Shown here one piece after another: positions 3,457 to 22,070 of a stretch of 64,000 bases of DNA. How positions within the stretch are numbered: the first letter of the stretch is position 1; every line of letters starts with the position of its first letter. Source of the DNA: Escherichia coli (GTDB lineage Bacteria; Pseudomonadota; Gammaproteobacteria; Enterobacterales; Enterobacteriaceae); assembly GCF_003018255.1 (NCBI RefSeq), contig NZ_CP027440.1. One strand, given 5' to 3'. The notes beneath the pieces are model-generated. The model searched no databases and was not told the origin of the DNA. It worked only from the letters and a program-made list of their open reading frames with translations. A program made the translations under genes and the position numbers.

Positions 3457-3485
3457 GCCTGATGCGCTACGCTTATCAGGCCTAC
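3457..3485. repeat. REP (repetitive extragenic palindrome) element
   Basis: gcctgatgcgctacgcttatcaggcctac, a canonical REP-type imperfect palindrome, in the sseB-pepB intergenic region. Confidence 0.7.
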
Positions 3486-3538
3486 AAGGGAATCTCAATC
3501 TATTGGATTTTCGCAATTTTGTAGGCCAAATAAGACGT

Positions 3539-4822
3539 TTACGCCGTTAACAGATTAGCAATCGTGCGCACACCTAGCCCGGTCGCGCCCGCAGACCACT
3601 GTTCAACCGGCGCTTTACGGTAAGTCGCCGAGCAGTCGATATGCAGCCAGCCTTGCTGATAGTTCTCAACAAAGTGCGACAGGAAGCCCGCCGCCGTGCT
3701 TGCACCTGCCGGATACGCCGCGCTTCCGGTATTGTTCAGTTCGGCAAAGTTAGACGGCAGCTGGCTGCGGTGGAACTCCGCCAGCGGCAGACGCCAGAAT
3801 GGTTCATTCTCCTGCGCGGCACTCGCCAGCAAGCGAGCGGCAAGCGCATCGTCAAAACTGAACAGCGCGTGATAATCATTACCCAGCGCGGTTTTCGCCG
3901 CCCCGGTGAGGGTCGCCGCATCAATGATCAGTTCCGGTTTCTGCGCACTGGCATCAATCAGGCCATCGGCCAGCACCAGACGCCCTTCCGCATCGGTGTT
4001 CATCACTTCAACTTTTTTACCGTTGCGATAGGTAATGATATCGCCCAGCTTGAACGCATTGCCGCTGATCAGGTTATCCGCACAGCAGAGGAACAGCTTC
4101 ACGCGCTTGTTCAGTCCGCGCGTAATGGCAAACGCCAGCGCTCCGGTAACCGTTGCCGCGCCGCCCATGTCCGACTTCATCGAGTCCATAAATGCGGTCT
4201 GTTTGATACTGTAGCCGCCGGAATCAAAGGTGATGCCTTTACCAACCAGGCACGCGTACACTGGCGCTTCTTTATCGCCTGTTGGGTTGTAATCCAGCGC
4301 CAGCAATACCGGGGAACGTTCTGAACCGCGCCCGACCGTGTGCAGCCCCATATAACCTTGATCACGCAGATCTTCGCCTTTGGTGATCCGGTAAGTCACA
4401 CGATCGCCCGCGACGTTGCTGATCAGATCAACAGCACGCTGTGCCAGTTGCGATGGCCCCAGTTCTTCCGCCGGTGCGTTGATGGTGTCACGCACCCAGT
4501 CGATGATCATCAGGCGGTTATCCAGTTCCTGCCGTTGGGCATCGTCCAGATCCGGCCACTCCACTTTACGTGTGCCTTTCGGGGCTTTGTAACCTTGCCA
4601 GAATGCCCAGCAGCGATCCGCATCCCAGTCTTCACCGCTTAACTGAACATGCTTGATGCCCAGACCGTCAATCTTGCGCGCCGCACGCTGGATCAGCCCC
4701 AGATCGTCTGTCCCGTTCAAATGCAGGGTAATGCCATCATTATTAATGCTGTAAGTCGCTTTTTCTCCCCAGCGCGCGTCGGCAGGTTGGGTAGAAAGGG
4801 TAATTTTCATCGCTTCTGTCAT
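3539..4822 (-). CDS. pepB: aminopeptidase B (M17 family)
   Basis: ORF track, 427 aa, [21 protein letters not shown]...; contains the M17 NTDAEGRL motif. Confidence 0.95.
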
Positions 4823-4842
4823 TTTAGTTATCCTTATTCGTT

Positions 4843-4876
4843 TAACAGCAAAACGGGCTACCCCCAGGCAGCCCGT
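4843..4876 (-). terminator. rho-independent terminator downstream of iscX (end of isc operon)
   Basis: Minus-strand stem acgggct/agcccgt with 10-nt loop, followed by TTTTGCTGTT on the minus strand. Confidence 0.6.
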
Positions 4877-4880
4877 TCAT

Positions 4881-5081
4881 TCACTCGGCTTCGTCCAGCC
4901 AGACCAACAAAATCGCTTCGAGGATTTTCTCGTTCGATGCCTGCGGGTCGTCGTCGAAATCTTCCAGATCGCAAATCCACTGATGCATATCGGTGAATCG
5001 AACCGTTTTCGGATCAAGATCGGGATACGCATCGTACAGTGCTTCGCCAATTTCGCGGCTATCGGTCCACTTAAGTCCCAT
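4881..5081 (-). CDS. iscX: Fe-S cluster assembly protein IscX
   Basis: ORF track, 66 aa, [24 protein letters not shown]... Confidence 0.95.
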
Positions 5082-5092
5082 ACTAACCTCTG

Positions 5093-5428
5093 TTAATGCT
5101 CACGCGCATGGTTGATAGTGTAACGCGGGATTTCGACCACTAAATCTTCGTCGGTAACGCGCGCCTGGCAGCTTAAACGGCTTTCCGGCTCCAGTCCCCA
5201 GGCTTTGTCCAGCATGTCGTCTTCCTGCTCTGAGCTTTCCGGCAGCGAGTCAAAACCTTCGCGAACGATGCAGTGGCAGGTGGTGCAAGCACAGGATTTT
5301 TCACAGGCGTGTTCAATCTCGATACCGTTACGCAGCGCAACGTCGAGAATGGTTTCACCACTATTCGCTTCCAGAACAGCGCCATCAGGGCAGAGATCCT
5401 GATGAGGCAAAATAACAATCTTTGGCAT
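5093..5428 (-). CDS. fdx: [2Fe-2S] ferredoxin of the isc operon
   Basis: ORF track, 111 aa, [18 protein letters not shown]...; cysteine motif [12 protein letters not shown]. Confidence 0.95.
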
Positions 5429-19071: not shown

Positions 19072-19391
19072 TGAATCGAATTTATGCGTGTCCCGTTGCG
19101 GATGTGCCGGAGGGTGAGGCTCTCCGGATCGATACCTCGCCCGTCATCGCCCTGTTCAACGTAGGCGGCGAGTTTTATGCCATTAACGATCGTTGCAGCC
19201 ATGGTAATGCGTCGATGTCAGAAGGGTATCTGGAAGATGACGCCACGGTGGAGTGCCCGCTGCACGCCGCCAGTTTTTGCCTGAAAACGGGGAAAGCGTT
19301 ATGCCTGCCCGCCACCGATCCGCTAACCACTTATCCAGTACACGTTGAAGGTGGTGACATCTTCATCGACTTACCGGAGGCGCAGCCATGA
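19071..19391 (+). CDS. hcaC: Rieske-type ferredoxin of 3-phenylpropionate dioxygenase
   Basis: ORF track, 106 aa; Rieske motif CSHGNASM...CPLHAASF. Confidence 0.94.
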
Positions 19392-20200
19392 GCGATCTGC
19401 ATAACGAGTCCATCTTTATTACCGGCGGCGGATCGGGATTAGGCCTGGCGCTGGCCGAGCGATTTATCGAAGAAGGCGCGCAGGTTGCCACGCTGGAACT
19501 GTCGGCGGCAAAAGTCGCCAGTCTGCGTCAGCGATTTGGCGAACATATTCTGGCGGTGGAAGGTAACGTGACCTGCTATGCCGATTATCAACGCGCGGTT
19601 AATCAGATCCTGACTCGTTCTGGCAAGCTGGATTGTTTTATCGGCAATGCGGGCATCTGGGATCACAATGCCTCACTGGTTAACACTCCCGCAGAGACGC
19701 TCGAAACCGGCTTCCACGAGCTGTTTAATGTCAACGTACTCGGTTACCTGCTGGGCGCAAAAGCCTGCGCTCCGGCGTTAATCGCCAGTGAAGGCAGCAT
19801 GATTTTCACACTGTCAAACGCCGCCTGGTATCCCGGCGGCGGTGGCCCGCTGTACACCGCCAGTAAACATGCCGCAACCGGACTTATTCGCCAACTGGCT
19901 TATGAACTGGCACCGAAAGTGCGGGTGAATGGCGTCGGCCCGTGTGGTATGGCCAGCGACCTGCGCGGCCCACAGGCGCTCGGGCAAAGTGAAACCTCGA
20001 TAATGCAGTCTCTGACGCCGGAGAAAATTGCCGCCATTTTACCGCTGCAATTTTTCCCGCAACCGGCGGATTTTACGGGTCCGTATGTGATGTTGGCATC
20101 GCGGCGCAATAATCGCGCATTAAGCGGTGTGATGATCAACGCTGATGCGGGTTTAGCGATTCGCGGCATTCGCCACGTAGCGGCTGGGCTGGATCTTTAA
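19388..20200 (+). CDS. hcaB: cis-dihydrodiol dehydrogenase (SDR family)
   Basis: ORF track, 270 aa; glycine-rich TGGGSGLG nucleotide-binding motif. Confidence 0.94.
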
Positions 20201-20209
20201 GGAAGCACG

Positions 20210-21412
20210 ATGAAAGAAAAAACGATCATTATTGTCGGTGGCGGGCAAGCGGCGGCAATGGCTGCGGCCTTGCTACGCCAGCAAGGGTTCAGCGGTGAGC
20301 TGCATCTGTTTTCCGATGAGCAACATCTTCCTTATGAACGCCCCCCGCTCTCGAAATCCATGTTGCTGGAAGATTCCCCACAGTTGCAGTCTGTGTTACC
20401 CGCTCACTGGTGGCAGGAAAACAATGTTCATCTGCATTCCGGTGTAACCATCAAAACATTGGGCCGCGACACACAAGAGTTAGTGTTAGCTAACGGCGAA
20501 AGCTGGCACTGGGATCAGCTTTTTATAGCAACCGGCGCGGCAGCTCGACCGCTGCCGTTGCTTGATGCACTGGGAGAACGCTGCTTTACCCTGCGCCATG
20601 CCGGTGATGCCGCCAGACTGCGAGAAGTTCTGCAGCCCGAACGGTCAGTCGTGATTGTCGGTGCCGGAACTATTGGTCTGGAACTGGCTGCCAGCGCCAC
20701 GCAGCGTGGATGTAAGGTGACAGTGATTGAACTGGCGGCAAGCGTCATGGGCCGTAATGCACCACCGCCCGTGCAACGCTATCTTTTACCGCGCCATCAG
20801 CAGGCTGGTGTGCGCATTCTGCTCAATAATGCCATTGAACATGTGGTCGATGGTGAAAAAGTAGAACTGACGCTGCAAAGTGGCGAAACGCTTCGGGCCG
20901 ATGTGGTGATTTACGGTATTGGTATCAGCGCCAACGACCAACTGGCTCGCGAGGCCAACCTTGATACTGCCAATGGTATTGTCATTGATGAAGCTTGCCG
21001 CACCTGCGATCCCGCGATCTTTGCCGGTGGCGATGTGGCAATCACCCGTATTGATAATGGTGCACTACACCGCTGCGAAAGCTGGGAAAACGCCAATAAC
21101 CAGGCGCAAATTGCCGCTGCCGCAATGTTGGGGCTACCGCTTCCGCGACTGCCGCCGCCGTGGTTCTGGAGCGATCAGTACAGTGATAACTTACAGTTTA
21201 TTGGCGATATGCATGGCGATGACTGGATTTGTCGTGGCAACCCGGAAACTCAGAAGGCGATTTGGTTTAATCTGCAAAACGGCGTGCTTATCGGTGCGGT
21301 AACGCTGAATCAGGGGCGTGAGATTCGCTTAATCCGCAAATGGATCCAGAGCGGCAAAACGTTTGATGCGAAACTGCTGATAGATGAGGACATCGCGCTT
21401 AAATCACTGTAA
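20210..21412 (+). CDS. hcaD: ferredoxin-NAD(+) reductase of 3-phenylpropionate dioxygenase
   Basis: ORF track, 400 aa; two GxGxxG/A dinucleotide folds (VGGGQAA, VGAGTIG). Confidence 0.94.
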
Positions 21413-21508
21413 CCAGGATAATTAGCGAATATCTCAATGCCAGGGGCGTGGCGAGGTGCAAGAGTGTGTATTACGTTTAAATCACATTATCTTGCAAAGG
21501 GATTGGTT

Positions 21509-21931
21509 ATGAACTCACTACGTTATTTTGATTTTGGTGCTGCACGCCCCGTTTTGTTATTAATTGCCCGTATCGCCGTGGTCTTAATTTTCATTATTTT
21601 TGGTTTTCCCAAAATGATGGGCTTTGACGGTACGGTCCAATATATGGCCTCGCTGGGCGCGCCGATGCCGATGCTGGCAGCGATTATTGCGGTAGTTATG
21701 GAAGTGCCCGCCGCGATATTAATCGTGCTTGGCTTTTTCACCCGTCCGCTGGCGGTGCTGTTTATTTTCTACACGCTGGGTACGGCGGTGATTGGTCACC
21801 ATTACTGGGATATGACCGGCGATGCGGTTGGGCCAAATATGATTAATTTCTGGAAGAATGTCAGTATCGCTGGCGCATTCCTGCTGTTGGCAATTACCGG
21901 GCCGGGGGCGATTTCTCTCGATCGGCGTTAG
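21509..21931 (+). CDS. yphA: DoxX-family inner membrane protein
   Basis: ORF track 21437..21931; start moved to ATG 21509 ([18 protein letters not shown]...), 140 aa, very hydrophobic. Confidence 0.85.
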
Positions 21932-21936
21932 GAAAG

Positions 21937-22070
21937 ATGCCGGATGCGGCGTGAACGCCTTATCCTGCCTACCGTTCCAACACCAATTGTAGGCCTGATA
22001 AGACGCGGCAAGCGTCGCATCAGGCATCGTGCGCCGAGTGCCGGATGCGGTGTGAACGCCTTATCCGGCA
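21937..22070. repeat. BIME cluster: three REP elements
   Basis: gatgccggatgcggcgtgaacgccttatcc, ggcctgataagacgcggcaagcgtcgcatcaggc and tgccggatgcggtgtgaacgccttatccggca between convergent yphA and yphB. Confidence 0.8.

Follow-up and report, generated by a model that had tools for sequence, protein, structure and literature searches.

Three intergenic spaces in a 64-kb stretch of Escherichia coli DNA (64,000 nucleotides of contig NZ_CP027440.1, hereafter the window) carry palindromes that a first-pass annotation had read as repetitive extragenic palindromic (REP) sequences forming bacterial interspersed mosaic elements (BIMEs). Site 1 lies between sseB and pepB, site 2 between trmJ and iscR, and site 3 between the convergent genes yphA and yphB; RefSeq annotation confirms these neighbours as they had been named. 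The question raised by these loci is to which REP families the palindromes belong, how they are arranged and what they could do for the genes that end beside them. We are highly confident that the palindromes at sites 1 to 3 belong to the Y, Z1 and Z2 families of E. coli REPs and form BIMEs, that these would serve as hairpins in 3' untranslated regions (UTRs), and that their strain alleles would have arisen mainly via recombination or slippage. REP and BIME elements have been described since the 1980s, and K-12 is known to have them at these very loci; the finding is correct but ordinary. The added detail consists of an overlooked truncated Y, the BIME-1 nature of site 1, the assignment of the copies to Z1, Z2 and Y, the status of the GTAG head in each copy and a survey of alleles.

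Family identity of the palindromes

The window originates from the E. coli chromosome (sseB-pepB-isc-trmJ … hca-yphAB), in keeping with the enterobacterial chromosomal origin first proposed for it. A 401-bp query around site 1 found a match in 5,424 of 5,426 complete E. coli genomes, over most of its length and under pepB and sseB annotations, and the gene order of the window is that of MG1655 from sseA to yphG.

The familiar palindrome GCC(G/T)GATGCG…CTTATC(C/A)GGC can be read at all three sites. The short Z consensus is matched at 29 of 29 positions at 3457-3485, with 0 matches in 100 shuffles, and the Y consensus at 33 of 34 positions at 21939-21972, with zero in shuffles. An unbiased de novo repeat finder recovered both a Y family (three copies) and a long-Z family (two copies). 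A loose regular expression allowing 3 substitutions per arm was uninformative (138 matches versus about 96 in shuffles) and was replaced by stricter patterns and by profile hidden Markov models (HMMs) of Y and Z2. These were built from MG1655 REPs at unrelated loci, namely the REPtron flanking rayT, and REP325 (yjdM-yjdN) with its neighbours; the RefSeq record NC_000913.3 of MG1655 carries no REP repeat_region features, so REPtron and REP325 sequences were used as reference. The two models gave the following matches in the window, where the best unrelated match had E > 0.6:

21937-21972, minus strand: Y model, E = 4e-12
22039-22069, minus strand: Y model, E = 1e-10
10653-10681, minus strand: Y model, E = 7e-8
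3521-3546, plus strand: Y model, E = 1.5e-4, model positions 1-26 only
21989-22027, plus strand: Z2 model, E = 3e-12
10703-10738, plus strand: Z2 model, E = 5e-11

Formal alignment with the Y, Z1 and Z2 families thus succeeds and the original observation stands, with REPs at the three sites and coordinates that were essentially right by consensus, pattern and HMM searches. The consensus, two-arm pattern and repeat-finder searches agree on six intact REPs in the 64 kb, every one of them at sites 1 to 3, and pattern, HMM and Rfam searches found no further REPs in 1-3.4 kb or 22.1-64 kb. The roughly 42 kb from 22100 to 64000, REP-free by all three kinds of search, is sparser than the K-12 mean of about one REP locus per 13 kb (355 annotated REP loci in 4.64 Mb).

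The segments are also dispersed. The Z1 query recurs at a median of 16 places per E. coli genome, the Y/Z2 query at 34 or more and the site-3 doublet at 33, and more than 99.9% of these places are chromosomal. What recurs elsewhere is the REP segment alone, as stray matches cover only the REP positions of the query (157-188 for the Z1 query). Within the window every copy lies between annotated coding sequences, except that the truncated Y of site 1, because of the 24-bp deletion described below, overlaps the last 8 nt of pepB.

Could these be GC-rich palindromes that arose by chance, or plain intrinsic terminators with no relation to REP? Their position at gene 3' ends is where terminators are expected. 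The idea is nevertheless refuted by the shuffles, by HMM E values down to 1e-12 against independent family members, and by scans that found neither intrinsic-terminator (T-tract) nor promoter motifs at the REPs of any of the three sites. Dispersal in tens of copies per genome argues against it as well, and we give it practically no weight.

Arrangement and strain alleles of the three sites

The literature on REPs, or palindromic units (Stern 1984; Gilson and Bachellier 1991-1999, as summarised in PMC3333891 and PMC8266576), distinguishes type lengths of 35 nt for y, 29 nt for z1 and 37 nt for z2 (PMC8266576). A BIME-1 combines z1 and y across a long L linker that often holds an IHF site and is found as a single copy; a BIME-2 combines z2 and y with short linkers and in variable tandem number, and variation in BIME copy number is itself stated (PMC3333891, PMC1187871). 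REP325, for example, is composed of Z2 and Y (bioRxiv 10.64898/2026.03.23.713779).

Judged by its layout, site 1 (3455-3546) is a BIME-1, with a Z1 on the minus strand and a Y on the plus strand placed head-to-head across a 35-nt linker:

3455-3485, minus strand: Z1 REP (short Z, 29 nt including GTAG), perfect consensus with 0 mismatches to the regular expression; GTAG head at 3482-3485
3486-3520: L-type linker, 35 nt, with the IHF-consensus-like motif TCTCAATCTATTG at 3493-3505, 1 mismatch to WATCAANNNNTTR
3521-3546, plus strand: truncated inverted Y REP GTAGGCCAAATAAGACGTTTACGCCG, 3' arm gone, running into the pepB stop codon (3539-3541, minus strand)

The first-pass annotation had recorded a single REP at 3457-3485; this is indeed a perfect Z1, situated 36 nt upstream of the sseB ATG (3420), and the second, truncated REP had escaped notice. 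An IHF-like motif with at most one mismatch has a chance expectation of 0.03 per linker. In its 3' part, TTGGATTTTCGCAATTTT, the site-1 linker is similar to the one that joins Z1 and Y between melB and yjdF in MG1655. MG1655 has an intact Y at site 1. The window lacks 24 bp between two direct repeats of the 10-nt sequence GTTTACGCCG, one copy of which lies in the Y loop and the other at the 3' end of pepB, where it takes in the stop codon. A 24-bp deletion between these repeats removed the 3' arm of the Y. The short allele is found in about 8% of genomes (419 records at 95% identity or more), and the others are 23-24 bp longer with an intact Y.

Site 2 (10652-10739) is a single and mutationally decayed BIME-2 unit of Y and Z2, the two inverted copies noted before:

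10652-10687, minus strand: decayed Y REP, 2-3 mismatches, stem mismatches, CCTG in place of the GTAG head
10688-10700: short head-to-head linker, which aligns with the equivalent linkers of three MG1655 units
10701-10739, plus strand: Z2 (long Z) REP, GCAG for GTAG, 8 nt from the trmJ stop codon (10746-10748, minus strand)

The term canonical, which had been applied to all the REPs, is an overstatement here, as the Y has neither GTAG nor CTAC and the Z reads GCAG. In MG1655 the position orthologous to this GCAG is GTAG. BIME alleles of one, two or three units, with a 91-bp period, occupy site 2 in 3,989 of the 5,426 genomes. A systematic sample of 39 chromosomes contained 20 rows with one unit, five with a 512-bp span and four with a 603-bp span, and MG1655 has three units. 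Another dispersed intergenic repeat of about 95-125 bp, found at a median of 14 places per genome, replaces the BIME in 1,449 of the 5,426 genomes (27%; e.g. E. coli 2014C-3599) and is joined at the same left boundary, directly after CCTGTTGTC. This repeat looks like boxC. That BIMEs differ in length from strain to strain, and that boxC can take their place, was reportedly described by Bachellier et al. in Genetics in 1997.

A terminator-like hairpin with a T-run (GCCCCTGCCCGGGGT TTTTTATTGT) was seen on the plus strand nearby, at 10498-10512, immediately upstream of the iscR start codon and in antisense orientation to the iscR leader. No plus-strand gene lies upstream of it, and MG1655 has it too.

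Site 3 (21937-22073) contains three copies, as had been stated, and from their order and orientation it is a one-and-a-half-unit BIME-2 (Y-Z2-Y):

21937-21972, minus strand: Y1 REP, GTAG head intact, one stem mismatch; starts 7 nt past the stop codon of yphA (21929-21931)
21973-21988: head-to-head linker, 16 nt, similar to the linkers of the K-12 araJ-mak BIME-2 and of E. albertii
21989-22027, plus strand: Z2 REP, GTAG head intact, part of the naRNA4 match discussed below
22028-22037: short tail-to-tail linker, seen in the sequence and in the araJ-mak alignment
22038-22073, minus strand: Y2 REP, perfect stem, AAAT in place of GTAG, 10 nt from the yphB stop codon (22080-22082, minus strand)

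This layout aligns unit for unit with the K-12 araJ-mak BIME-2. At site 3 a spacer of 47 bp with just one Y is the state of about 85% of genomes, MG1655 among them, and multi-REP forms make up about 10%. The alleles seen are Y, Y-Z2, Y-Z2-Y and Y-Z2 followed by a broken REP, and every one of them rejoins the right flank at the junction of …ATCC/ATCA with GGCATTTT. Y-linker-Z2 is present in the orthologous yphA-yphB spacer of the E. albertii type strain (NBRC 107761) and of Escherichia sp. E1V33 from a cryptic clade, and the E. albertii spacer contains a broken third REP identical to that of E. coli AHB22. With the multi-REP form present in both of these, the multi-REP state at site 3 probably goes back a long way, and a deletion between REP ends probably gave rise to the common single-Y form.

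The exact form that site 3 has in the window is rare: over 451 bp, 12 records reach 99% identity or more, and over the Y1-Z2 doublet 3 do. This could instead mean that site 3, and perhaps the other two as well, is a REPIN-like doublet that RayT/TnpA-REP still moves today, the differences between strains being insertions. Indeed the Y1-Z2 pair (21937-22027) retains both GTAG heads, and full-length units about 90% identical to it, linker included, stand at other loci in nearly every genome. However, among the copies at other loci the closest has only about 92% identity and so no donor is evident, and the occurrence of Y-Z2 in the orthologous spacers of E. albertii and E1V33 is at odds with a recent arrival. 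The GTAG heads speak to the same point. They are present on four of the seven copies (Z1 at 3482-3485, the Y remnant at 3521-3524, Y1 at 21969-21972 and Z2 at 21989-21992) and absent or mutated in the Y and Z2 of site 2 and in Y2 of site 3. E. coli TnpA-REP tolerates no change of GTAG (PMC8266576), which makes both site-2 REPs and Y2 of site 3 unlikely substrates. Going by the GTAG heads, plausible substrates would be limited to the Z1 of site 1 and two REPs of site 3, Y1 and Z2; site 2 appears to be inert. Finally, no rayT homolog was found in the window (tblastn, E > 4), rayT being located elsewhere in K-12, and none of the three sites is therefore a REPtron. Taken together these points make present mobility improbable.

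Recombination or slippage between directly repeated REP ends would be the main source of the strain differences in copy number, with current transposition less likely. The 91-bp period at site 2, the shared junction at site 3 and the GTTTACGCCG-bracketed deletion at site 1 support such an origin.

Site 3 raised a further possibility, namely that it encodes a dedicated naRNA4-type nucleoid-associated small RNA that condenses the chromosome together with HU. The Rfam model RF02564 (naRNA4) matches 21992-22070 on the minus strand with 72.7 bits, above its gathering score of 59.5 and with the full model covered, and it reaches only about 34 bits at site 2. Yet the model represents one Y+Z2 unit of REP325, so that any BIME-2 unit would match it, and the opposite strand also scores 54 bits. 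About 85% of E. coli genomes have no Z2 at site 3, and REP325 and the naRNAs produced no measurable nucleoid compaction, with REP-REP contacts undetected (bioRxiv 10.64898/2026.03.23.713779). We consider a naRNA4 gene at this site very unlikely, and keep to a BIME-2 as the description of site 3.

Predicted hairpins and their possible consequences

What could these elements do where they stand? Sites 1 and 2 separate tandem gene pairs on the minus strand (pepB→sseB and trmJ→iscR), and site 3 separates a convergent pair; the usual contexts of REPs are about 40% tandem and about 60% convergent (bioRxiv 10.64898/2026.03.23.713779). The distance from the stop codon to the nearest REP is 8 nt for trmJ, 7 nt for yphA, 10 nt for yphB and 0 nt for pepB, whose hairpin is destroyed. 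RNA folding predicted the following stabilities, with z scores relative to shuffles:

Z2 of site 2: -22.2 kcal/mol, z = -4.8
Z2 of site 3: -21.3 kcal/mol, z = -5.4
Y2 of site 3: -23.6 kcal/mol, z = -6.3
Y1 of site 3: -15.1 kcal/mol, z = -2.6
Z1 of site 1: -13.1 kcal/mol, z = -2.2
Y of site 2: -13 kcal/mol, z = -1.05, indistinguishable from shuffles
Whole of site 3: -75.5 kcal/mol, z = -7.3

The predicted REP folds show the expected bulge, and the Y remnant of site 1 is unable to fold alone. In the absence of intrinsic terminators, the REPs are the only strong 3'-end hairpins for pepB, trmJ, yphA and yphB. Once transcribed, REPs in these 3' UTRs would form stable stem-loops, which may terminate transcription partially, with the help of Rho, and may block 3'-to-5' exonucleases, setting the ratio of upstream to downstream expression. 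For the tandem pairs this would favour the upstream gene; for the convergent pair at site 3 it would apply to both genes and in both directions. Going by the literature on REPs, such a role in termination or decay is the likely one for sites 1 to 3. A REP no more than about 15 nt away from a stop codon is also said to make translation of the upstream gene less efficient, by way of ribosome stalling and tmRNA (Liang, Rudd and Deutscher, 2015), an effect that, if true, would apply to trmJ, yphA and yphB.

On the DNA itself, IHF may bind the L linker of site 1, and gyrase may bind or cut the BIME-2 units of sites 2 and 3. The functions first suggested for the repeats (mRNA 3'-end stabilisation and possible action of gyrase, IHF or REP-associated transposases) are consistent with published work but divide by type of element. 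In BIME-1 it is the L linker that holds IHF sites (PMC3333891), and these would thus be relevant to site 1 only; gyrase binding and cleavage are described for BIME-2 (Espeli and Boccard 1997, as cited in PMC3333891), and so gyrase would be relevant to sites 2 and 3 only. The placement of IHF at the predicted motif of site 1 and of gyrase at sites 2 and 3 follows from family membership, and both proteins may act there.

Several observations weigh against parts of this picture. The Y of site 2 is a weak hairpin (z = -1). One-mismatch IHF-like motifs differ in position and strand between the window and MG1655. The outgroup argument for an old multi-REP state at site 3 draws on two genomes, and recombination between species is possible. 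The effects of REPs are context-dependent with a wide spread, and terminal REPs had no global effect on half-life (bioRxiv 10.64898/2026.03.23.713779), so that any single site may be neutral.

All three loci are polymorphic among the 5,426 E. coli genomes, and they offer a small concrete set of examples for the view that variation in REPs adjusts expression from strain to strain. This leads us to speculate that strain-specific BIME states are natural cis-regulatory variants which would retune pepB, trmJ/iscR or yphA/yphB while leaving coding and promoter sequence untouched, a suggestion that is tentative and that we hold to be rather doubtful. The states in question are the loss of the pepB-abutting hairpin (about 8%), the presence upstream of the isc promoter of one decayed unit where other strains have two to three or a boxC-like repeat, and the rare Y-Z2-Y between yphA and yphB. 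The repeats are useful as a species marker for the window, and they draw attention to three 3' UTRs whose hairpins may influence termination or decay.

Other elements lie in the window. A tandem duplication of about 322 bp, with copies 87% identical, is located between sseA and sseB at 1842-2357 (and 2001-2645); it covers the Rfam small RNA genes IS128 (2001-2209) and ryfA (2341-2645) and corresponds to the known K-12 timR/ryfA region. Gathering-level Rfam matches, all at places expected for this chromosomal region, were:

9878-9987, minus strand: iscRS stability element
39323-39470, minus strand: GlmY
48650-48727, plus strand: OhsC
52139-52353, minus strand: rncO
55136-55967, plus strand: AsrC

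Comparison with known systems

The copies in the window resemble the E. coli REPs, or palindromic units, in sequence, in length classes (Y about 35, Z1 29 and Z2 about 37 nt), in extragenic position and in copy number, and they share the imperfect stem with its AA/GC bulge. They differ in that three copies have no GTAG, one Y is truncated and the Z2 loop is 1 nt longer than in the REP325 or REPtron copies; nothing essential differs. Like a BIME-1 (also RIP or RIB), site 1 has Z1 and Y head-to-head, a single copy and an IHF-like motif. Its Y has lost the 3' arm and the second hairpin therefore cannot form, the remnant pairing with Z1 in the predicted RNA fold.

Sites 2 and 3 share with the BIME-2 elements REP325 (yjdM-yjdN) and araJ-mak the alternating orientation of Y and Z2, linkers of 10-16 nt and a unit number that varies between strains. 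The unit number in the window is low, however, at 1 and 1.5 versus 6 in REP325, and the copies of site 2 are decayed. The match of site 3 to Rfam RF02564 (naRNA4, CssrE) would reflect shared REP sequence and not naRNA function. The REPIN/RAYT system of Pseudomonas (PMC3116915) likewise has inverted REP doublets as its repeated unit and one domesticated transposase per genome. Its REP sequences are different, and the evidence from the window favours old elements reshaped by deletion over recent copying.

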